A stretch of DNA of 64,000 nt from a virus (lineage: Duplodnaviria > Heunggongvirae > Uroviricota > Caudoviricetes), in the IMG/VR virus record IMGVR_UViG_2974564184_000001, positions 64,977-128,976 of that record, one strand, 5' to 3'. A program made the position numbers and the translations under genes. Shown in pieces: positions 16,059 through 29,016 of this stretch; position 1 is the stretch's first letter, and every line of letters begins with the position of its first letter. The notes under the pieces were generated by a model. The model saw nothing but the letters and a program-made list of their open reading frames with translations. It was not told the origin of the DNA and did not search any database.

Positions 16059-17558
16059 GTGGCCGACCAGAAAACATTCGGGTTAAACGACTACGGTTTC
16101 ACCGTGCCGTCCCTGGACACACTGATTGCAGAAACAAAAGAATCTCTGATCGCCATCTTTGGCGAGACCTTCAACACACAATCCAACTCCATCGTCGATA
16201 AACTGACAACGATCCTGAACGAACGTGAATATCAACTCATCCTTCTGGGACAGGCGATCTACGCTTCTGGGACACTGGCAGGTGCCGAAGGCATTTACCT
16301 TGATGAATTGCTGGGCCGTCGTGGTGTTTACCGCCGTGGTAAAACGAAGAGCACAGGTTCAATTGAGATGGCTGTCAACGCAACCGTCCCTTACAACCTT
16401 ATTTATACTCCAGACTCATTCACCGTTGACAATGGTACGTTCATCCTGACGGGAAACACGACCGTTGCGGGGAGTCTGATTGCACAGCAGATTTTAAACT
16501 CTGATCTGGTTCTTGGTAAATACACGTTCCAAGTCCTGAGTTCTGCTGACAACTCAATGAAGTCAATGAGTGTTACCCTTCGAAACAAGACCCCGGGTTC
16601 AACAGAGCTTAACACGTTCCTTTATTCGATCAAGGACTTTATCGTAACCAACACCACAGATTTGAACGCAGATCTGATTTATGTTGACTCCGCCGCAGGC
16701 GCACTGTACATTGGATACAACTCGACGAAAGAGCTTATCGGGCTTAACAGTCGCATCGACTTCCGTTCTTCTCCTATTGCTGGTACACGTACCTTGCAGT
16801 TCGAAGTTGTGGCAGTAGAAGCGGGTGTTCTCACAAGAGAAGCCAATACAGTGACGCAGATTTCTCCGACACCGAGCGGATTCATCTCTCTGAACAACAT
16901 GACCTCGTTTGCTGATGGTGCGGACGTGGAGACGGACAACGAATACAAAATTCGTGCGATGTCAATCACATCTGAGGCTTCCAAAGCAACACGTCCTGCT
17001 GTAATCTCCGCCCTTCTGGGTGTTGAAGGTGTTCAGAAAGTCAAGATCTTCGCCAACAACACAGATCAGCGCGACCAGTACGGTGTTCCAGCCTACAAAT
17101 TCGAGCCAGTTGTGTATGGTGGTGTAACGGAGCAGATCAGCCAGGCACTGTACAACACAATTGCTTTGTCCAATGGGACATACGGTAACACGTTCTACGA
17201 TATCACCACTGAGGATGATACTGTCGAGCGAATCTACCATAGCAAGGCGTCGTCCACGAGCTACAACGTACTGATCCGTTACCAAGGTAAGGTTCTCTCC
17301 TCAACCGAGCAGGATACTATCCGTCGTGCGATCAAGTTGATGACTGACGGTTTGACAATTGCAGATACCCTTTACAACATCCAGCTAATCGCTGCGGTTG
17401 CCGGGGCGGTATCAGCAGGTCGATTCACTCAGCTTACGGCTGCTGTGAAGAAGGCCAGCGAACCAACGTCCGCTTACACCTCTTCCGACGTAGTGTTGGG
17501 AATGCGTGAAGTGTTTGCTCTGGACACAGCGAACATCTTGTTCCAACAAATCACTTAA
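16059..17558 (+). CDS. Baseplate J-like wedge protein (499 aa, GTG start)
   Basis: AEGIYLDELLGRRGVYR, GADVETDNEYKIR, VEGVQKVKIFANNT motifs; SD GGAGG. Confidence 0.9.
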   Translation: MADQKTFGLNDYGFTVPSLDTLIAETKESLIAIFGETFNTQSNSIVDKLTTILNEREYQLILLGQAIYASGTLAGAEGIYLDELLGRRGVYRRGKTKSTGSIEMAVNATVPYNLIYTPDSFTVDNGTFILTGNTTVAGSLIAQQILNSDLVLGKYTFQVLSSADNSMKSMSVTLRNKTPGSTELNTFLYSIKDFIVTNTTDLNADLIYVDSAAGALYIGYNSTKELIGLNSRIDFRSSPIAGTRTLQFEVVAVEAGVLTREANTVTQISPTPSGFISLNNMTSFADGADVETDNEYKIRAMSITSEASKATRPAVISALLGVEGVQKVKIFANNTDQRDQYGVPAYKFEPVVYGGVTEQISQALYNTIALSNGTYGNTFYDITTEDDTVERIYHSKASSTSYNVLIRYQGKVLSSTEQDTIRRAIKLMTDGLTIADTLYNIQLIAAVAGAVSAGRFTQLTAAVKKASEPTSAYTSSDVVLGMREVFALDTANILFQQIT

Positions 17559-17568
17559 TGAGGGAAGC

Positions 17569-19758
17569 ATGGCAGATACATTGCAAGATGTAAACCACAT
17601 CCATGTGCTGCCTGACTTCGTGCAGGACGGGGTTAATTATCTACCTGGCGATTTCCTTCGCCAGAAAGAAAACCTTGTAAAGTTCTTGGGAACGTACCTT
17701 GAGAGACTTCGCGTAATTGACGAAATGCTTGTCAATCTCTCTGAGGGCCGACTGCTGGCGAATGCCGCTTACAAGAACCTGGACGAGATTGGCAGACAGC
17801 TTGGTGTTGACCGTAACGGTATGAGCGATGACAGTTATCGTGCTTCCATTACGATCCTACTGGCGAGTGCTTCAAAACACGGGACACGCCCGGAAGTTAT
17901 TCAAACTTTACGTCAGTTGTTTGGTGACCAAAACTTCACCACCTGGAAAGGTGACAACTATCGTATCGACATTCACGTAATGTCAACCTGTTTCCGACTG
18001 GAAGATCTCCTTCAAGAGATCAAAGATATGCTGCCCCTTCCAACGCATCTGCGTTTGATTGAATCGTATGGCAGAGCTTTCGGATTCAACGGCGATAAGG
18101 ACACCTTCGGGTTCTCCTCTGTGAATGCAAACAAGACAACGACAACCCAAGGTGGGATTGCTCGTCTGGTGTACACTTCTGATGAAGAGAACACTGGATA
18201 CATCATGACCGTCACAGTCGATGACATCACTGTCAACGCCTCTGAGGTAGCACCTGTAGGTATCGTGATCTCTATCTCTGATGCTGTTCTGACAGAATCA
18301 AGTGATAGTGTGACAATTGCACCACTGTCTGTAGCCTTCGGCACAGCTACCGTTGGGGAACCAACAGCAAGCAAGCTGATGACTGTGAACAACAACACTG
18401 ACTTCACGGTTACGATTGCAACCCTGACCATGCCGACCGGGTACACACTCGCATCTGGCAGTGCTCAAGTGGGAACTGTAATTGCTCCAAGAAAGACAGC
18501 CGATATTGCTGTTAGCTTTAATCCGCAAGAAGTCGGGAACATCTCTGGAAACATGGTTGTTACCACAACAGGACAAGCAAGCACGTTAAGAGTTCTTCTT
18601 TCTGGTGTTGGTAAGGCAGCTCCGATTGTTGGATTGCAGCGCCTGGTGACATCTGGTAACCAGTTCGTGACCACTCAGAGTGCTGAGAATTTCCGAATCA
18701 AATCTGTAAACTGGTTTGGTATGGAAGGTCTGAACTTCACCCCTCACGGAACGTGGGTCGGTGCTCGTTACTGGAAAGACATCATTGACCAGATCAAGAC
18801 ATTCGGATTTAACACGATCCGTATCCCTCTGTCTGGAGAAGTGGTACAGAACAACCCATACCCACCGAATGGTGCTGTGGACTTAGAGGTTAACTCTGAA
18901 TTCGTTGACAAGAGAGCGCTGGAGATCTTGGATCTCATCATTGCTTATTGCAACACTCAAGAAATCTATGTTATCCTTGACCATCACCGTCGTGCTGCGG
19001 GTACAGGTGCAGATGGCTCTCCGGTTGACGGAAGCTACAACTTGACCAAATGGTTGGACACTTGGACGAAACTGGCAACGCGCTATAAATCAGCGGTTAA
19101 CGTTATCGGGGCAGACGTTCACAACGAACCGCATGACCTTGACTGGGCAACGTGGGCAGGCTATGCTGAACAAGCTGGTAATGCTATCCACGCTGTGACC
19201 ACTGATTGGATCATCTTCGTTGAAGGTGTTGGACAGTACGAGAATGTCAGCTACTGGTGGGGCGGTCAGCTTCAAGGTGTTGCAACTCGTCCGGTAACTC
19301 TGACTCAACCGAACCGTGTGGCTTACAGCCCTCACGAATACGGACAGAGCGTTGGAAGTCAGTCTTGGCTGGCATACGACAATCAGACACCTCCGGTGAA
19401 CTGGCCTAACAACTTGTACGGCGTTTGGCAACCAATGTGGGGTTACATCTTCACACAGAATATTGCGCCGCTTTGGGTCGGTGAGTTTGGTGGACACTTC
19501 GGTGTCGATGGTAACGGAAACGTAACTAAGCCTCACGCAACCTATGAGAAGCAATGGCTCAATAATCTCATCAAATATTGGAATGGTGACTTTGACGGCA
19601 ACGGGACAAAAGATCTGGCAGCAGGGAAGAAAGGAATTTCCTACAGCTACTGGAGCTACAACCCGAACAGTGGTGATACAGGTGGTCTTGTAGAAGACGA
19701 CTGGGTAACTCCTCAAACTGTGAAGCTCGATCTGCTCGCTCCTGCATTGTCCGACTGA
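17569..19758 (+). CDS. Baseplate wedge protein (DUF2612/gpI-like) fused to Ig-like domain and GH5 endoglucanase (729 aa)
   Basis: Likely start ATG 17569 (SD GAGG). N-terminal LDEIGRQLGVDR wedge motif; C-terminal GH5 motifs VNWFG, GFNTIRIP, VILDHHR, HNEPH (Glu codon 19126), YSPHEYG, VGEFGG (Glu codon 19483), YWSYNPNSGDTGG. Confidence 0.92.
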   Translation: MADTLQDVNHIHVLPDFVQDGVNYLPGDFLRQKENLVKFLGTYLERLRVIDEMLVNLSEGRLLANAAYKNLDEIGRQLGVDRNGMSDDSYRASITILLASASKHGTRPEVIQTLRQLFGDQNFTTWKGDNYRIDIHVMSTCFRLEDLLQEIKDMLPLPTHLRLIESYGRAFGFNGDKDTFGFSSVNANKTTTTQGGIARLVYTSDEENTGYIMTVTVDDITVNASEVAPVGIVISISDAVLTESSDSVTIAPLSVAFGTATVGEPTASKLMTVNNNTDFTVTIATLTMPTGYTLASGSAQVGTVIAPRKTADIAVSFNPQEVGNISGNMVVTTTGQASTLRVLLSGVGKAAPIVGLQRLVTSGNQFVTTQSAENFRIKSVNWFGMEGLNFTPHGTWVGARYWKDIIDQIKTFGFNTIRIPLSGEVVQNNPYPPNGAVDLEVNSEFVDKRALEILDLIIAYCNTQEIYVILDHHRRAAGTGADGSPVDGSYNLTKWLDTWTKLATRYKSAVNVIGADVHNEPHDLDWATWAGYAEQAGNAIHAVTTDWIIFVEGVGQYENVSYWWGGQLQGVATRPVTLTQPNRVAYSPHEYGQSVGSQSWLAYDNQTPPVNWPNNLYGVWQPMWGYIFTQNIAPLWVGEFGGHFGVDGNGNVTKPHATYEKQWLNNLIKYWNGDFDGNGTKDLAAGKKGISYSYWSYNPNSGDTGGLVEDDWVTPQTVKLDLLAPALSD

Positions 19759-19769
19759 GAGGAGTAACA

Positions 19770-22190
19770 ATGAGACAGGCTACATTTACAACAACCCTCA
19801 ACCAGGCCAGCGAATCGCTGGTCACGGTTGACTATGCCACCCAGGACGGATCTGCGGTGGCACCCGCTAACTATACAGCTAAGTCTGGGACTTTGACGTT
19901 TGCAGCAGGGGAAACCTCTAAAGACATCATCGTCCTTGTGAACGACGACGCGCCTGCGGAGACAGAGACGAACTTCTATGTTCTCTTGACCAATCCGCAG
20001 AACGGCGTCTTAGGGACTTCTCGTGGTACGGCTACAGTACCGGGTTCAGAAGAACCACCGAAGACGAACTATCTGGAACGGTTCAAGACCATTTACAACA
20101 TGGTTCATGATGTCGATAACAAATACTTTGGGCCGCAGACAGGGGCGAATGCTCGCACACTGCCACGTCACATCCCGGGTGTTGATAGTATCATCATCAA
20201 CGAAGCGCCTGACCACGGTGGTGAAACCGTATCAGAAACTGCTTCCTTCTGGGTTGGTCTGGAAGCGTGGAATGGTTACGTAAGCGGACAACTGGGAACC
20301 GCCGATTGGTCAGGTTATAACAACGCCTGGAACCAGATCGATAAGTTCTACGTTCCGTCTGCGACTAACCAGCCGATTGCGACGTATCTACCAGCGAAAC
20401 CAGCGGACTACACCCCAGAGGGTGACTTGCCGAGTGCTTACCCGACACTGGGTGACCCGACAGCAGCCCACGGTACTGACCCGTTAGCAGATGAGTTGGA
20501 ATCAACCTACGGCAACAAGCGCATGTATCTCATGCACTGGATTCTGGACGTTGAAGGCTTGTACAATTTCCGAAATGGCGATGGTACTAAGCAGAACGTG
20601 TATATCAACACGTATGAACGCGGTATGCAGGAATCTTCTTTCGAGACGGTAACGCACCCGGCGTGGAACGACTTTGCTAACGGTGGTTCTATCTACGGAT
20701 ATGACCCATTGTTCACCCAAGGATCTCAGTGGTATCCAGCAGCAGCCAACGATTGGGGTAAGAAGTGGTCATACACTAACGCACCCGATGCAGAAGGCCG
20801 TGCGATCCAGTGGTCATTCTGGGCGCAGAAGTTTGCAACCGAACAAGGCGCAGGTACAGCCATCTCTGCTTCGACTACAAAAGCGAAGAAGATGGGCGAC
20901 TACATGCGTTACAACCTTTTCGATAAATATTTCCGCAAAATTGGTGATAATCAATTAGGTGGGACGGGTTACGAAAGTTGCCATTATCTGGTAAACTGGT
21001 ATGCAGCATGGGGCGGTGAGATTCCGGCAGCAGGAGCTACAGCTTCTTGGTCGTATCGTATCGGTTCCTCTGAGTGTCACCAAGGTTATCAGGCAATCGA
21101 CTCAGCATATTTCATGGCAACAGGTGGTGGTGGATTCAGTCCTCTGTCCCCGAGCGCTTCTGACATTTGGTTAGGCTCTGTCTACCGTCAGATGGAAATG
21201 CTTCGTTGGTTGCAATCAGCAGAAGGCCCGTTAGCAGGTGGTGTGACGAACTCCTGGAACTCTCGTTACGAGACTCCTACCGATGGTCGTCAGAACGCCA
21301 AGTTCTACGGAATGGTTTATACCTATGCTCCAGTATGGCACGATCCACCATCAAACGACTGGGTTGGTTTCCAGACATGGGGTCAAGGCCGTACAGCGGA
21401 TCTGTTCTTGGAAGTGTCTGATAAGGCAACTCCACTGGCAACAACATTGAAAGCCAACCTTGAGGTCATCCTTGATCCTCTGGTTGTGTGGTTCCTGAAC
21501 AACTCTACGTTGTCCTCTGATGGTTCATTCCTGCTCCCGGGAACTCTGTCTTGGACTTCCCCGACGCAAGTTGTTGGTCAGACGGCGACCGCGCCAAACC
21601 ACGAAGGTGTGTATGAATACCTTCCATCCCTTAACTGGGACGGAACAGGTAACCAAGCAGCATTCTGGAATGCGTCCACAGTTCCTAACCCGAACTTGCA
21701 TTGCAGCATTGTTGAGTATGCAACCGACCTCGGTGTTGCAGCGTCCTTGGCTTACATGTTGATCTCTTACGCGAAAGCGAAGCAGAACATGGGTAAATTC
21801 ACCACCAAGATCAAAAGTACAAACCACACCGCAGAAACTGCGTTGACGTTTGCCAAAGAATTGCTGGATCGCATGTGGAACAAATACGTCGATGACGTTG
21901 GCCTCGCGATTGACAGTTCAATGTCAAGCTACAAGCGTCTGTTTGACACGGTGTATGTGCCAGAGATCTTCACAGGTACGATGCCGAACGGCGAGCAGAT
22001 CAAGACGGGCGTTAAGTTCCATGAACTTCGTACCTTCTTGCACGATGACCCTAAATGGGCAGAAGTACAGGCGTATGCGACAGGTGCTACTAACGTGCCA
22101 CCAGTGTTCAAATACCACCGCTTCTGGGCGCAAGCCGAATTCGCGATCAGTCTCGCGGCTCTCCATCGTTACTTTAGCGACGTGATCTGA
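19770..22190 (+). CDS. Calx-beta domain plus glycoside hydrolase family 48 cellulase (806 aa)
   Basis: Calx-beta (VDYATQDGSA...YTAKSGTLTFAAGETSK); GH48 motifs YLERF, EAPDHG-ETVSE, MHWILDV, INTYERG, YTNAPDAEGRAIQ, GGVTNSW, YHRFWAQ; no signal peptide. Confidence 0.92.
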   Translation: MRQATFTTTLNQASESLVTVDYATQDGSAVAPANYTAKSGTLTFAAGETSKDIIVLVNDDAPAETETNFYVLLTNPQNGVLGTSRGTATVPGSEEPPKTNYLERFKTIYNMVHDVDNKYFGPQTGANARTLPRHIPGVDSIIINEAPDHGGETVSETASFWVGLEAWNGYVSGQLGTADWSGYNNAWNQIDKFYVPSATNQPIATYLPAKPADYTPEGDLPSAYPTLGDPTAAHGTDPLADELESTYGNKRMYLMHWILDVEGLYNFRNGDGTKQNVYINTYERGMQESSFETVTHPAWNDFANGGSIYGYDPLFTQGSQWYPAAANDWGKKWSYTNAPDAEGRAIQWSFWAQKFATEQGAGTAISASTTKAKKMGDYMRYNLFDKYFRKIGDNQLGGTGYESCHYLVNWYAAWGGEIPAAGATASWSYRIGSSECHQGYQAIDSAYFMATGGGGFSPLSPSASDIWLGSVYRQMEMLRWLQSAEGPLAGGVTNSWNSRYETPTDGRQNAKFYGMVYTYAPVWHDPPSNDWVGFQTWGQGRTADLFLEVSDKATPLATTLKANLEVILDPLVVWFLNNSTLSSDGSFLLPGTLSWTSPTQVVGQTATAPNHEGVYEYLPSLNWDGTGNQAAFWNASTVPNPNLHCSIVEYATDLGVAASLAYMLISYAKAKQNMGKFTTKIKSTNHTAETALTFAKELLDRMWNKYVDDVGLAIDSSMSSYKRLFDTVYVPEIFTGTMPNGEQIKTGVKFHELRTFLHDDPKWAEVQAYATGATNVPPVFKYHRFWAQAEFAISLAALHRYFSDVI

Positions 22191-22192
22191 TC

Positions 22193-22221
22193 AAGGGGGG
22201 CGGGAAACCGCCCTCTTTTTT
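22193..22221 (+). terminator. Rho-independent terminator after GH48 gene
   Basis: GGGGCGG-GAAA-CCGCCCT plus T-run. Confidence 0.75.
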
Positions 22222-22231
22222 GGAGAGATAA

Positions 22232-22585
22232 ATGGCAACGGTTACAGCTACCTTCACCCTTAGCAGGGACAATTTCGCGGAGATTAGTTCTCTGGACTAT
22301 GCGACAAGTGATGGCACCGCGATTGCAGGTGTTGATTATGTGGCAAAGTCAGGACGGATCACCATGAGCGCAGGCACCGTAGAGGTGCAAATCTCAATTG
22401 ATGTAATGACCAAGCCGAAAGGCACCCCGAGCAAGACCTTCTTCCTCGATTTGTCAAACCCATCTAAGTATCGAAAACTCATTACCAAAATCGCCCGGAC
22501 AAGAGCGGTGTGTACGATTTACACCACTGACGCTGGCCCACTCGCTGTCATCAGCATTAGCGATGCAGTAATCACACAAGTATAA
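22232..22585 (+). CDS. Stand-alone out-of-phase Calx-beta protein (117 aa)
   Basis: LDYATSDGTAIAGVDYVAKSGRITM...TFFLDLSNPS; lacks N-terminal strand and ends in VISISDAVITQV. Confidence 0.85.
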   Translation: MATVTATFTLSRDNFAEISSLDYATSDGTAIAGVDYVAKSGRITMSAGTVEVQISIDVMTKPKGTPSKTFFLDLSNPSKYRKLITKIARTRAVCTIYTTDAGPLAVISISDAVITQV

Positions 22586-22595
22586 CGAGGATATC

Positions 22596-23534
22596 ATGGC
22601 ACAACCTGAGATCGAGATCGAAGTATGGGCAGGGTTAGATTATGATCTGCCTAATGCCCTGACAAAAAACAAAATCAGACCTATCTCTGACCTATGGGAT
22701 AAGGGATATGATATGGGCGAGAAGCCTGATGTCCAGGCGTGGAACTACGTGTGGTACATGCTGACTGTGTGGATGAAGTACATGCAGGAAGAGCAGCTTC
22801 CAGGTCTTGATAACCTTTACCTGAAACGCACAAGAAACCTTGAGGAACTGACTGATAAGCCACAGGCTCGTAGTAACTTGGGTGTTTATTCGAAAGATGA
22901 CTCCGACAACCGTTACTTGCAGCTAACGGGTGGCGCTCTGTCAGGTGGATTGAAAATTGCTGGTAACACCGCAGTTGATATCACCTCACAAGGTCTTGCT
23001 ATTCGCTGGAACGAGACCAACGGCTCAGGCGCTACCTTCTTTGTCAACAACCAGGGTGGTGGGACAGGTGGTTTTGTATTCCGTAACGTGAACGCATTAG
23101 GTACTGCGGAAACTGGTCGTGTAACGATCCAGCCGAACGGCTCTCTGGTAACTTCCGCTACAGTTCGTGGTGGAACTCTGGAATCAACTGGTAACGCCAG
23201 TGTAGCAGGAACCACAACAACTGCCAACCTTACGGTGCAGAATAACGCAGCAACAGTTGGTGGACGACATGTAGCGAGAGCAGTGAACGGAAACATCGCA
23301 GACGAGAACGGTAACGTGACAGTGACCATTCCTTCTCCTGGTGTTACTGACGTTCGTCTTGGGTCTCAAGGGAACCAAGGTGCTTCGAATAGCTTCACAG
23401 TTCCTGCTGGATGCCTGGTTACAGGTCTTAACGGTTTCAAAGTAACCGGGCCTGACTTCCAACTTTATGGTCTATTCTACCGTCCTCTCCAGAAATTCCT
23501 CAACGGGGTCTGGGTGACCGTTTCAGTAATCTAA
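22596..23534 (+). CDS. Tail fibre protein (312 aa)
   Basis: Baseplate-attachment N-terminus (WDKGYDMGEKP...WNY); C-terminal tip DVRLG...VPAGCLVTG...YRPLQKFLNGVW; followed by fibre assembly gene. Confidence 0.8.
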   Translation: MAQPEIEIEVWAGLDYDLPNALTKNKIRPISDLWDKGYDMGEKPDVQAWNYVWYMLTVWMKYMQEEQLPGLDNLYLKRTRNLEELTDKPQARSNLGVYSKDDSDNRYLQLTGGALSGGLKIAGNTAVDITSQGLAIRWNETNGSGATFFVNNQGGGTGGFVFRNVNALGTAETGRVTIQPNGSLVTSATVRGGTLESTGNASVAGTTTTANLTVQNNAATVGGRHVARAVNGNIADENGNVTVTIPSPGVTDVRLGSQGNQGASNSFTVPAGCLVTGLNGFKVTGPDFQLYGLFYRPLQKFLNGVWVTVSVI

Positions 23535-25122: not shown

Positions 25123-28100
25123 ATGTCCGACATGTCAGTAATCAACTCTTCTACCAGTGACGCTATCGACCAGTTGGTGATCGACTCTGGAAGAATGCAC
25201 AAGGTAATCAACGGAACCGCCGTTGAATCGATCACCGTAGAAGACGGTAGTCTGATTCCTTCCTTGCGTAAGGCTCTGCTGGAAAACCTTTACTACAAGA
25301 CCCCGGTTCTGCCGTGGCAGTCTGGTAGTGTGACGCAGATCTTCAACCAGCTTTATGCGTTCACCGAGCCGACCTCTGGGGCGGTATCTTGGTGGTATGC
25401 ACCGTCTGCTACAGCAACCAACCCGGTGAGCATGGGAGACACTCCTGCGACTGACGCCAACTGGCGTGTAGTTCTGGACTCTGCTACCCTGACAGGTCTG
25501 TATGCGACAATTGACAGCCCTAACTTCACAGGTCTGCCTACTGCACCAACAATGGATGCAGATGATGTGAGTACGTCAATCGCGACAACTGCTTTCGTCA
25601 ATGCACTTATCCAGAAGATCTTAGAAGCCGTGGACGCAACTGCTGTCCAGACTGCGACTTTGGATGTTACTGGTGACGCAAACATCTTCGCACTGACCGC
25701 ACAGAATGCAACTGTGACCGAGAAACTGACCGTACAGGATCTTGAGATTCTTGGTGAAGTTACTGGTATCCAGACTTCTGTTGACGGTGAAGACATTGCT
25801 CCGAAGAGCATCACAACAACTGAGAAACTGGAAGTCGGCGGTGATACATTGCTGCACGGAGCTTTCCAACTTTCCGGTAACACTGTGACGTTGGGTGATG
25901 GTACACTCATCGACCTGACCAACATTGGATCTTCCGGTACACTGGAAACTTCGTTCAACCTCGACCAAGAAGTTGGAAACACGAACTTCATCTGGGATAC
26001 AAACACCCTGAATGCTCCGATCTTCGGATCTTCCGGTAAAGGTATCACAATTGCAAAAGATGCGACCAATGTAACACAGGTTACCTGGCCTGACAACTCC
26101 CAGTCCGCATGGGTTCGTGTCATGACAGACGGGACGTTTGGTGCATGGGGCAATTCAATCGCTTCTGACGTTGAAGCAGTGGCAGGAACATCAACAGATA
26201 AATCTCTGTCTCCAAAGAGCGGTAAGGCTCTGTTAGCCAACTTCGGTATCGGTACTCAGACTGTACAAGTCAAGACTGACCTGAACGACGCGGTAGAAGG
26301 AGAGATCTTCGCATACATGGCAGGAACAACCAACGCTCCATTCGTGGATGTCGGTGGTCGTGGTATCCTGATGCCTTCTTCTACGGGAGAGGCGAGTATG
26401 CTTGTACTGGAGAACACCAACAACCGTTTATTCGTCCGTTATCTAACTGGCGGAGTGTGGGGTGATTGGGTTGAGTTCGAAGGTAAGGAAGGGCCAAAAG
26501 GTGACAACGGCGACCAAGGTCTGCCAGGAGCATCTGCATATGAGGTTTACGTATCCACTGTGCCAGAAGGTGAAGACCCTCTTGAGCCAGAAGAATGGAT
26601 TGCTTCTCTGCAAGGTTCATCCTTCTCTGTAAACCAAACAGGTACAACTGCTGAACGTGCAAACTACGACGCAGAGCCAAAAGGATTCTCATTCCTTGAC
26701 ACCACAACTGGTATGCTGTACATCAAGAACTCTGCGACAAGCGGAGACTGGTCTGATGGTATCCCGTTCAAAGGTGACAAGGGTGACAACGGTACGAATG
26801 GTGCCACTTGGTACACAGGAACCACTGTACCAGCAGCGGGAACTGGCGTCAACAACGACCTTTACTACCTGACCACAACTGGCGATGTCTATAAAAAGAC
26901 TTCCGGCGCGTGGGCCATTGTAGGGAACATCAAGGGCGGCAAGGGTGACGATGGTGACCCGGGCGCTGACGGTGCAACTTGGTTCGAAGGATCAACCGTT
27001 CCAGCGGCTGCTCTTGGTAAGAATACTGACCTTTATCTGCACAATGTAACCAACGACGTTTACGTCAAGGCCGCAGGCGCATGGACTGTTCAGACGAATA
27101 TCAAGGGAACCAAAGGTGACGATGGTGAGCAAGGAAGTGTTTGGATTTGGGGTGCTACACCACCAGCCGACACAGTAGGCCGTGACGGTGACTACTTCTT
27201 GGTTGTACCTGTCCCTCCAACTGACTCCTCAAACGGAGACGTGTATAACAAGGCTTCTGGCACTTGGACATACATCGGTAATATCCGTGGAGCAGATGGT
27301 GATGGTTCTGGCACTGGCAGTGACGGAGCGAAGTGGTTCAATGGTACAGGTGTTCCGGTTGCATCTCTCGGTGCGGACGGTGACTACTACCTGAGAACAA
27401 CGACTGTCAGCACTACTGCCGGGAACGGTGATGTGTACGTGAAAGCATCAGGTGCTTGGTCTGTGACTGGGAACATCAAAGGTGCAGACGGCACTGGGTC
27501 AAGCTACACCCTCCCGGTTGCAACTGCAACTGTTCTTGGTGGTGTGAAGATCGGTTCTGGTGTGAGTGTTGCTGCTGACGGAACAATCTCTGTTTCTGGA
27601 AGCGGTGGCGGTGGCACGATTTGGCTGAACGGAACTTCTGACCCAGCCACAGGAACTGGTGTGGTAGGAAACTACTACAACAACACAGCTACGGGCGTAG
27701 TCTTTTACAAGACCGCGACCACAACCTGGACACAAATCGGTGTTATGCTTCCGTTAGCAACATCCGACCAGGCGAAAGCTGCAACCAGCAACTTGGTTCT
27801 GTCAACCCCAGCCCGTGTTCGTGAATACATGGAGGCTCATGGCTTCACTGCATCATACACCACAACCGCTACAAACCTGAACACCGTTGTTACAGGTGAT
27901 ATGTTCAACTATGACAACACGACCACTAACACACCAGTGGCGAGTTCTTATGGACGCGGTATCGTGTTCCCGTCTGGTACTGGATATGTAACCCAACTTG
28001 CCATTGAGAACGACTCAGCCAAGCTGTATGTGCGTTATCAATCAAACGGCACATGGTCTGCATGGACAGCAATCGGCGGTGGTAGTGGCTCAGTTACCTT

Positions 28101-29016
28101 TGCGACAACAGCAGAGGCACAAGCAGCGACTTCCACCACAGTGGCGATGTCACCAGCGCGTGTTCGTGAACAATTCGAGCCTTTAGGTTTCGGTTCCACA
28201 TACACAAACGAAGTGGCTAACCTGAACACCCTGACAAAGGGTCAGTTCTTCAACTGGGGATCTACCTCCACTAACACACCAGTGGCGAGTTCCTACGGAC
28301 GAGGGATCATGATTCCAGCAGGAGTAGGATACGCTACTCAGTTGGGTATTGTCAACGACTCTGGGGCGACCTATGTTCGTTACAATAACAACGGGACATG
28401 GACAGCGTGGGTCGCTGTAGGCGGTTCTGGGGGTACTGCGGCGGTTATGAAGCCTTCCGGTACAGGACACGCAGCAGGTCTGGCACCTGACCCAGGCGCT
28501 ACAGCAGGGACAACTAAGTTCTTGCGTGAGGATGCAACATGGGCGGTTCCAGCGGGTGGTTCTGGGGGAGGGTCAACGACCTTTGGATCTGCACTTATGG
28601 CAGACCTTGCCTTGACAGCAGGGGGGAAGGTAACTTCTTCCTTCGTCACCTCGGGTGTGGCAATTGACCCAACCAAGATCTACAAGTTCTCGGCTGTACT
28701 GCTTCTAAGAACCGGAGCAGGAAACACAGTTGACATTAACCTGTCAGATGTTGGGCCGGATATGTTCGGTATGTCAATTCAGTACCTGAACGACTCAGGT
28801 GCTGCTGCAATGGCAAGATCTGAGCAGGCGACCCTTGCGGTCACCATGACACTCCCTGCGGATGTTTCGGTGGTCTTACTGGACGGTACGATGCACTCTT
28901 CTTACTTCGGTACAAATGGGCCACAAGTCCAACTTGCAACAGGAAGTAGCGGATGGGGCGCTCTGCTGAAAGGGTCTTGCTGGACAATGACACCAGTTGG
29001 AACTTATCCAACATAA
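25123..29016 (+). CDS. Long modular tail fibre (1297 aa)
   Basis: Spike-type N-terminal anchor; collagen-like Gly-X-Y runs; about five W-x-x-G..P....G...D.Y...GDVY....G.W...GNI.G modules; duplicated knob-like domains. Confidence 0.85.
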   Translation: MSDMSVINSSTSDAIDQLVIDSGRMHKVINGTAVESITVEDGSLIPSLRKALLENLYYKTPVLPWQSGSVTQIFNQLYAFTEPTSGAVSWWYAPSATATNPVSMGDTPATDANWRVVLDSATLTGLYATIDSPNFTGLPTAPTMDADDVSTSIATTAFVNALIQKILEAVDATAVQTATLDVTGDANIFALTAQNATVTEKLTVQDLEILGEVTGIQTSVDGEDIAPKSITTTEKLEVGGDTLLHGAFQLSGNTVTLGDGTLIDLTNIGSSGTLETSFNLDQEVGNTNFIWDTNTLNAPIFGSSGKGITIAKDATNVTQVTWPDNSQSAWVRVMTDGTFGAWGNSIASDVEAVAGTSTDKSLSPKSGKALLANFGIGTQTVQVKTDLNDAVEGEIFAYMAGTTNAPFVDVGGRGILMPSSTGEASMLVLENTNNRLFVRYLTGGVWGDWVEFEGKEGPKGDNGDQGLPGASAYEVYVSTVPEGEDPLEPEEWIASLQGSSFSVNQTGTTAERANYDAEPKGFSFLDTTTGMLYIKNSATSGDWSDGIPFKGDKGDNGTNGATWYTGTTVPAAGTGVNNDLYYLTTTGDVYKKTSGAWAIVGNIKGGKGDDGDPGADGATWFEGSTVPAAALGKNTDLYLHNVTNDVYVKAAGAWTVQTNIKGTKGDDGEQGSVWIWGATPPADTVGRDGDYFLVVPVPPTDSSNGDVYNKASGTWTYIGNIRGADGDGSGTGSDGAKWFNGTGVPVASLGADGDYYLRTTTVSTTAGNGDVYVKASGAWSVTGNIKGADGTGSSYTLPVATATVLGGVKIGSGVSVAADGTISVSGSGGGGTIWLNGTSDPATGTGVVGNYYNNTATGVVFYKTATTTWTQIGVMLPLATSDQAKAATSNLVLSTPARVREYMEAHGFTASYTTTATNLNTVVTGDMFNYDNTTTNTPVASSYGRGIVFPSGTGYVTQLAIENDSAKLYVRYQSNGTWSAWTAIGGGSGSVTFATTAEAQAATSTTVAMSPARVREQFEPLGFGSTYTNEVANLNTLTKGQFFNWGSTSTNTPVASSYGRGIMIPAGVGYATQLGIVNDSGATYVRYNNNGTWTAWVAVGGSGGTAAVMKPSGTGHAAGLAPDPGATAGTTKFLREDATWAVPAGGSGGGSTTFGSALMADLALTAGGKVTSSFVTSGVAIDPTKIYKFSAVLLLRTGAGNTVDINLSDVGPDMFGMSIQYLNDSGAAAMARSEQATLAVTMTLPADVSVVLLDGTMHSSYFGTNGPQVQLATGSSGWGALLKGSCWTMTPVGTYPT
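27760..28425 (+). repeat. Tandem duplication of a ~115 aa knob module in the tail fibre
   Basis: PARVRE...NLNT...TNTPVASSYGRG...TQL...YVRY..NGTW occurs twice; near-identical DNA CCACTAACACACCAGTGGCGAGTTC at ~27922 and ~28269. Confidence 0.85.

Follow-up and report, generated by a model that had tools for sequence, protein, structure and literature searches.

The locus described here raises the question of how glycoside hydrolases might be held on the baseplate of a tailed phage when one of them, together with a small neighbouring protein, begins with a domain that is short of its first strand. The window analysed, a stretch of 64,000 nucleotides (positions 64,977 to 128,976 of IMG/VR record IMGVR_UViG_2974564184_000001), is part of the 148.8-kb genome of a myophage, and the closest record is Erwinia phage pEp_SNUABM_01 (Henunavirus, Vequintavirinae), with ~80% nucleotide identity across the region. 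Three genes are in question, which like the other parts of the locus placed below between 16059 and 23534 lie on the plus strand: one for a 729-residue fusion protein in which a wedge-1 baseplate domain is followed by a linker, an immunoglobulin-like (Ig-like) domain and a GH5 endoglucanase (17569-19758), one for a GH48 protein (19770-22190) and one for a small protein of 117 residues, here called the adaptor (22232-22585).

The best-supported explanation, and one that we consider reasonably probable, is that accessory enzymes are held on the baseplate through a docking joint made from a split domain. The flexible linker by which the wedge-1 baseplate protein is covalently extended into the Ig-like domain and the GH5 endoglucanase would be the bearer of two free copies of Calx-beta strand A, termed D1 and D2, while GH48 and the adaptor would present sandwiches of strands B to G that lack strand A. 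A donor strand from another chain would complete each of these sockets in trans, giving a composite seven-stranded domain and with it a non-covalent joint, and the C-terminal donor strand of the adaptor would be one further plug. With the wiring preferred below, a single wedge-1 protein would carry one GH5 enzyme and as many as two of GH48. The six wedges of phi92 each contain a single gp145 together with two copies of gp146 (PMC13450770), and because of its homology with phi92 gp146 the fusion protein would be expected twice per wedge and twelve times per virion. Binding, the wiring, this stoichiometry and the presence of GH48 and the adaptor in the virion are what we infer from the sequence anatomy and its distribution among related phages.

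The incompleteness of the two Calx-beta domains is seen with Pfam, with a hidden Markov model (HMM) for which 320 complete domains of the family were taken from unrelated bacterial proteins, and, for the adaptor, in the superposition of an AlphaFold2 (AF2) model, all of which agree on a start at the second strand. Against Pfam PF03160, residues 14-79 of GH48 align with profile positions 35-100 of 119 and residues 6-87 of the adaptor with positions 24-105, scoring 55.7 and 41.2 bits respectively, above the Pfam gathering cut-off of 27. The HMM consensus runs from strand A (PTLSISDVTVTE) through the turn GNSG into strand B (TTTATFTVTLS), and its position 27, the first residue past the A-B turn 'EGNSG', falls on Met1 of GH48 and on residue 3 of the adaptor. 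These two proteins are the sole Calx-beta matches of the HMM in the 148.8-kb genome, which holds no complete domain. Both also match phrog_6040 from profile position 1-3 (adaptor, E 9.2e-15; GH48, E 1.6e-6). The AF2 model of the adaptor, with a core predicted local distance difference test score (pLDDT) of ~80-90, matches NCX1 CBD1, CALX CBD1 and integrin beta4 with Z scores of 11.9-12.3 (about 12) and a root mean square deviation of 1.8-2.0 Å over 94-97 residues; the match begins at residue 386 of NCX1 and at residue 1004 of integrin beta4, which we take to lie past strand A of those domains. The acceptor domains span 19770-20054 at the N-terminus of GH48 and 22232-22534 in the adaptor (residues 1-101), and neither chain has a strand A N-terminal to its strand B. 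Neither reading frame can be lengthened at its 5' end. An upstream start for GH48 was rejected, as the 31 in-frame codons 5' of its ATG encode no strand-like sequence (GAGAGGAG precedes the ATG), and an upstream extension of the adaptor gene is ruled out by a stop codon directly 5'.

Where, then, is the missing strand? A position matrix for strand A, derived solely from unrelated bacterial Calx-beta domains, was scanned over 177,558 six-frame positions of the genome. D2 (VISISDAVLTE, 18265-18297) ranks first of all of these at 18.8 bits, the runner-up scoring 13.6. D1 (MTVTVDDITVNAS, 18205-18243), which stands immediately 3' of the wedge domain, contains the weaker motif TVTVDDITVNA (18208), joint second in the genome at 13.6 bits, and the C-terminal tail of the adaptor (VISISDAVITQV, 22547-22582, with the stop codon ending at 22585) ranks seventh to eighth at 11.4 bits. 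The occurrence of strand-A motifs is more than chance would give. The position that shares second place, ALTAQNATVTE (25690-25722), belongs to a tail fibre of 1297 residues and is probably a chance match in a beta-rich fibre. The adaptor tail and the TIYTTDAGP that precedes it align column by column with the junction between domains, and with strand A of the domain that follows, in tandem Calx-beta proteins. The initial annotation had read both domains as starting at the second strand, had located the missing strand at 18205, 18265 and 22547, and had likened TIYTTDAGP to an inter-repeat junction, and in these respects it holds.

The candidate donors are retained among close relatives. D1 is kept in pEp_SNUABM_01 and in the related contig L100, and its position is that of the C-terminal donor in the wedge-1 proteins of Av-05 and L123; D2, which lies 20 residues from D1, has a core, ISISDA, that is invariant across three orthologues. 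Word-based homologue searches found five relatives of the adaptor and three close relatives of the linker, so that the alignments of these parts are shallow. In the AF2 monomer model of wedge-1 residues 186-365 the Ig-like domain is well defined (pLDDT 96-98) and D2 lies outside it, and residues 186-245, which include both donors, are coil with block-mean pLDDT of 41-67 (D1 50-57, D2 62-67), although such values are the default for a shallowly aligned linker and on that account are weak evidence that counts little in favour of a docking joint. The adaptor tail has pLDDT of 46-52 in its own monomer model. The linker donors and the adaptor tail are thus not confidently used within their own chains, which is weakly consistent, as far as these models go, with free donors.

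It might be argued that the adaptor completes itself with the strand at its C-terminus, whether by circular permutation or within a closed domain-swapped dimer, and that the linker motifs are ordinary linker. In support of this, DSSP assigns short strands at residues 106-109 and 113-116 of the AF2 monomer, but these lie within the stretch of pLDDT 46-52. The tail moreover corresponds in alignment to strand A of the following domain in tandem proteins, a strand that never folds back there, GH48 has no such tail that it could use, and the linker motifs that would have to be dismissed are the highest-scoring in the genome. Self-complementation is accordingly the least probable of the explanations considered here and hardly to be expected.

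Comparison with homologous loci bears on whether donor and acceptor belong together. In phi92, phAPEC8 and the contig L007, the large tail protein gp141 carries a strand-A-like C-terminal tail (e.g. LTVLTMNDISVDVTK) and the next gene, gp142, begins at strand B, so that an A-less Calx-beta stands at Met1 of a cargo protein just as it does in GH48. The 4MG protein gp048 shows 82% identity to phi92 gp141 across the C-terminal part that can be aligned; the final ~30 residues are absent from it, and a Calx domain is absent from the neighbouring protein. Among 76 gp141-like loci the C-terminal strand extension is found in four, solely those that precede an A-less Calx gene (4/4 versus 0/72). The same holds among 19 wedge-1 loci, where the extension is present in pEp_SNUABM_01, Av-05 and L123, again only before an A-less Calx gene (3/3 versus 0/16); the Av-05 wedge-1 protein ends in ILIYVDNISVDATE, and the Av-05 and L123 donors are on the same wedge-1 carrier and at the same position as D1. 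The remaining 16 of the 19 wedge-1 proteins stop at 205-212 residues and are followed by a fibre gene. Sequence searches of the Protein Data Bank (PDB) with phi92 gp142 gave matches only to N4 gp64, N4 gp65 and Na/Ca exchanger domains, and a search with phi92 gp141 gave none. The protein phi92 gp142 (L004:8992-11151) resembles N4 gp64 over residues 358-608 (E 2.4e-27) and N4 gp65 over residues 272-344. Relatives of the two partners in the N4 sheath heterodimer are thus combined, as segments, in a single protein of a myophage.

Pairs of this kind are also found on other carriers. In the Schitoviridae phages S6, Pastis and phiEaP8 the GH5 protein has a motif resembling strand A, which falls at a single position of the alignment (ALSVSDGVIKS, TLSIADGTIVS and TLSISNAVIE), and GH48 begins at strand B, so that the pair of GH5 donor and GH48 acceptor is kept. 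The jumbo phage contig L012 encodes a GH5 protein with three tandem strand-A motifs (L012:2525-2675), spaced 19-20 residues apart in agreement with the 20-residue spacing of D1 and D2, and the next gene begins at strand B. In the metagenomic phage L016 an adaptor of 114 residues has an A-less socket and ends in VVSINNVSVS. The carriers of donors thus include the C-terminus of gp141, the C-terminus and the linker of wedge-1 proteins, GH5 linkers and the small adaptor, and since the pair recurs on several different carriers it appears that the donor moves with its acceptor from one carrier protein to another. The roles that the initial annotation had assigned, with the baseplate as donor, GH48 as acceptor only and the small protein as both, gain comparative support from this joint occurrence and movement, and the co-conservation of the motif at homologous loci, which it had named as a check, is borne out in the two sets just described. 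Among the gp141 homologues, those of L081, L086, L092 and L095 carry a different C-terminal extension (e.g. LDVTLTVEDVPLKPEQ) followed by a non-Calx gene whose product starts MAKAVKKIRLHDL; this extension may be another kind of strand plug.

The recurrence of orphan strands and A-less domains could also be taken as an evolutionary relic, the debris left by fission and shuffling of tandem Calx-beta proteins, in which case the truncated domains would fold or act alone, for instance as carbohydrate-binding or spacer modules, and GH48 would be soluble or otherwise anchored. L016 speaks for this explanation. There the adaptor and GH48 lie in the same frame (L016:3506-3950), interrupted by one TGA with an ATG two codons later from which GH48 restarts at strand B, a plain signature of fission; the gene appears to have been split within the A-B turn, and it is possible that the in-frame TGA is passed by stop-codon read-through. 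A relic would not, however, be expected to show a cut that falls every time in this one A-B turn although the carriers are unrelated, or perfect co-occurrence of donor and acceptor in two sets of homologues. Donors have been multiplied, both in L012 and in P0019, the L100 homologue of the adaptor (72% identical), in which the tail donor is duplicated into two copies, and the motif is retained across genera of Schitoviridae. In the genome itself the eight residues VISISDAV are identical in D2 and the adaptor tail (8/8) while most of their codons differ and only 25 of 61 bases match when the flanks are included; the pair is therefore not a recent DNA duplication, and its retention at two sites despite mostly different codons is a further point against mere debris. 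On this balance we regard the relic explanation as unlikely.

Several observations nevertheless weigh against a docking joint, and some of them are what a relic would predict. The co-occurrence counts stem from few independent lineages, the four gp141 cases forming one clade and the three wedge-1 cases two or three lineages. A codon-level comparison of donors with spacers in the three orthologues revealed no clearly stronger constraint on the donors. Pavtok (gp16 and gp19) and LASTA (gp13 and a 973-residue open reading frame) each have two A-less Calx-beta acceptors, and a scan of the first 30 kb of Pavtok and of the LASTA locus with the canonical strand-A matrix gave no convincing in-frame donor; either their donors are divergent or their A-less domains are able to stand alone. 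The L012 jumbo phage, with a genome of 360 kb, has three donors and only one A-less socket gene, a ratio that trimeric cargo would fit. As a separate observation, one of the A-less Calx-beta proteins of Pavtok and LASTA is annotated as an 'EPS depolymerase'.

If sockets are completed by donors from other chains, which donor would serve which socket? A tree of 18 sockets resolves two clades with support of 98/97. The gp142-type clade takes in the small proteins of this phage group, whereas the canonical clade contains the GH48 sockets and those of L012, L016 (both sockets), Pavtok and LASTA. The donors likewise fall into two types: D1 and D2 are identical at only one of 11 residues, and D1 scores 16-31 against gp142-type donors with BLOSUM62. 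The adaptor tail shares nine of 11 residues with D2 and one of 11 with D1, and D2 and the tail are both like canonical strands, with scores of -4 to 18 against gp142-type donors. Two clades of acceptors and two types of donor suggest a fixed wiring, in which D1 would plug into the adaptor, and a GH48 socket would be taken by D2 and another by the tail of the adaptor. Judged from such likenesses, and supposing that the joint itself is real, we would give this wiring somewhat less than an even chance; D1 also resembles canonical strands, which leaves the assignment weakly based and is a further point against the scheme.

The wiring bears on the initial proposal of a pilus-like arm, in which copies of the small protein would be chained head-to-tail, the tail of each in the socket of the next, to give an extendable arm rooted in the baseplate and capped by GH48. 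Socket and plug are indeed united in the small protein. On a geometric argument, strands A and G being parallel, the seven residues that follow strand G (TDAGPLA) would be too few for the tail to reach back, in its native orientation, into the strand-A slot of the same chain, and in the monomer model the pLDDT of the tail is low. Self-chaining is nonetheless not the obvious pairing, since the socket belongs to the gp142-type clade and the tail is of the D2, canonical type; the proposed wiring speaks against a self-extending chain because the plug of the adaptor differs from the type expected for its own socket. In L016 the adaptor tail abuts the GH48 socket and not another adaptor, and periodic or repeated adaptor genes were not found. 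The head-to-tail arm thus finds no support at this point, and we consider it very improbable that copies linked through strand complementation form an arm of variable length, put together in the cytoplasm with neither chaperone nor usher.

The near identity of the adaptor tail and D2 (9/11) admits one further explanation, namely that the small protein is an assembly chaperone and not a structural adaptor: its tail would fill the GH48 socket transiently in the cytoplasm and then be displaced by D2, that is, donor-strand complementation followed by exchange. The expression of the two genes may also differ, given that the small gene stands behind a GC-rich, terminator-like hairpin with a U-run in the gap between it and GH48 (22193-22221; folding energy -22.6 kcal/mol, z -3.8). 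A consensus terminator scan made no call at this hairpin while folding did, and L100 has a similar hairpin in the same gap; with the hairpin in place, the adaptor may be transcribed together with the fibre genes instead of GH48. A chaperone role would, however, require the exchange of nearly identical strands for which there is no obvious driving force, it would leave the socket of the small protein itself unexplained, and it sits poorly with the two tail donors of the L100 homologue. We therefore judge it quite improbable and retain the docking joint, in which the small protein would be a structural link.

The genes around the proposed joint encode baseplate and fibre proteins. Upstream lies the gene for a Baseplate J-like wedge subunit equivalent to phi92 gp145 (16059-17558; Pfam Baseplate_J, phrog_6), identified also by synteny with 4MG and phi92. 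The wedge-1 domain of the fusion protein (residues 1-208, 17569-18192) matches phrog_4056, the PDB entry 'Wedge 1 protein' 9mjn (E 2.6e-64) and Phi92_gp146 (E 9.6e-18). The Ig-like domain that adjoins D2 (18304-18633) is of the ASH, TMEM131_like_N, DUF1573 or choice-of-anchor-D kind according to Pfam; S6 gp095 has a pair of domains of the 'choice-of-anchor D' type ahead of its donor motif. The GH5 endoglucanase domain (18700-19671) is recognized by Pfam PF00150 (E 8.9e-45) and by the PDB structures of CelE2 and the E1 endocellulase (E 1e-81 to 1e-71), and the catalytic domain of GH48 (20070-22190) by PF02011 (E 1.1e-195). Downstream of the adaptor follow a tail fibre equivalent to phi92 gp147 and 4MG gp044 (22596-23534), and then its assembly chaperone; the N-terminal part of this fibre is similar to the one encoded immediately after wedge-1 in 16 relatives. 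In 4MG the wedge-1 homologue stops at 210 residues and the fibre gene comes directly next, from which the whole segment between the linker and the small protein would be an addition. The 1297-residue fibre (25123-29016) contains collagen-like G-x-y stretches and several repeated modules of ~90 residues.

If the joint is what it seems to be, it would constitute a small and portable plug and socket, consisting of a strand of 11 residues and a domain of ~95 residues, common to several unrelated phage groups (Vequintavirinae, Stephanstirmvirinae, Schitoviridae and a jumbo phage). As far as sequence comparison can tell, the docking device is apparently widespread, and it would bolt enzymes or receptor-binding proteins onto differing structural proteins, thereby accounting for the virion attachment of GH48, of the NGR-binding gp142 proteins and of some depolymerases. 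For annotation it would provide the rule that an orphan strand reveals its partner, and in the laboratory a natural handle for placing new cargo on phage tails. It would also present a case of gene fission inside a domain in which both halves have stayed together.

Among known systems, the chaperone-usher pili (Fim, Pap, Caf1) are built from Ig-like subunits short of one strand, the groove being filled by another chain. The two proteins of this locus share the incomplete Ig-like fold of such pilins, but what they lack is the N-terminal A strand, and the candidate donors lie internally or at a C-terminus, whereas in chaperone-usher pili it is the C-terminal G strand that is missing and the donor is an N-terminal extension; nor would a periplasmic chaperone or usher be expected for a phage assembled in the cytoplasm. 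In the type V pili of Bacteroidia (FimA/Mfa1) an N-terminal strand slot is vacant and the C-terminal strand of a neighbouring subunit is the donor. The polarity is thus as proposed here, although in type V pili the slot is opened by proteolysis of a lipoprotein precursor while in the phage strand A is simply not encoded: the proteins begin MRQATF and MATVTA at strand B, without a leader, and show neither a lipoprotein precursor nor a strand for removal by a protease.

The nearest solved precedent is the baseplate tripod of phage Tuc2009, where a C-terminal beta-hairpin of BppU completes a sheet of domain 2 of BppA to give a titin-like composite (PMC4742702). The likeness is that a C-terminal extension of a baseplate protein completes an accessory carbohydrate-directed protein, resulting in a composite Ig-like attachment. 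It differs in the use of a two-strand hairpin as compared to a single strand, and of a titin-like as compared to a Calx-beta fold; Tuc2009 is a siphophage of Gram-positive hosts, no sequence relation is seen, and its joint has not been described as a cassette portable between different carriers. Closer in sequence are phi92 gp141-gp142, Av-05 0098-0099 and the rV5-type lateral fibre proteins, which have homologous sockets (phrog_6040) and an upstream strand-A-like tail but, unlike this locus, one donor and one acceptor only. The cargo of the phi92 and Av-05 type is an NGR-binding deacetylase-type protein (bioRxiv 10.64898/2026.04.02.716166); in the 2026 structure paper on phi92 (PMC13450770) gp141 and gp142 go unmentioned, and fibres I and II are not resolved. 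Erwinia phage S6 offers the same pair of GH5 and GH48 in gp095 and gp094, with a donor-like motif in the GH5 protein, although on a podophage tail instead of a myophage wedge protein and without the small adaptor. For S6, cellulase activity of the GH5 protein gp095 has been shown, cellulose is the first receptor, and the GH48 protein gp094 is listed with an N-terminal Calx-b domain, whose missing strand is not noted (PMC9544554). In the literature on donor strands in phage baseplates and on Calx-beta domains in phage fibres and depolymerases we found no description of the split.

The cellulosome, in which cohesin and dockerin load enzymes such as GH5 and GH48 non-covalently onto a scaffold, is a functional analogue. 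Its joint connects two complete domains, whereas the one proposed here would act by completion of a fold, and the three proteins have no cohesin or dockerin match in Pfam (E <= 0.1), so that the replacement of cohesin and dockerin suggested in the initial annotation can be understood only as an analogy. The complementation of a fold by a strand from another chain is a known principle, of which the Calx-beta domain split between baseplate, adaptor and enzyme would be a variant.

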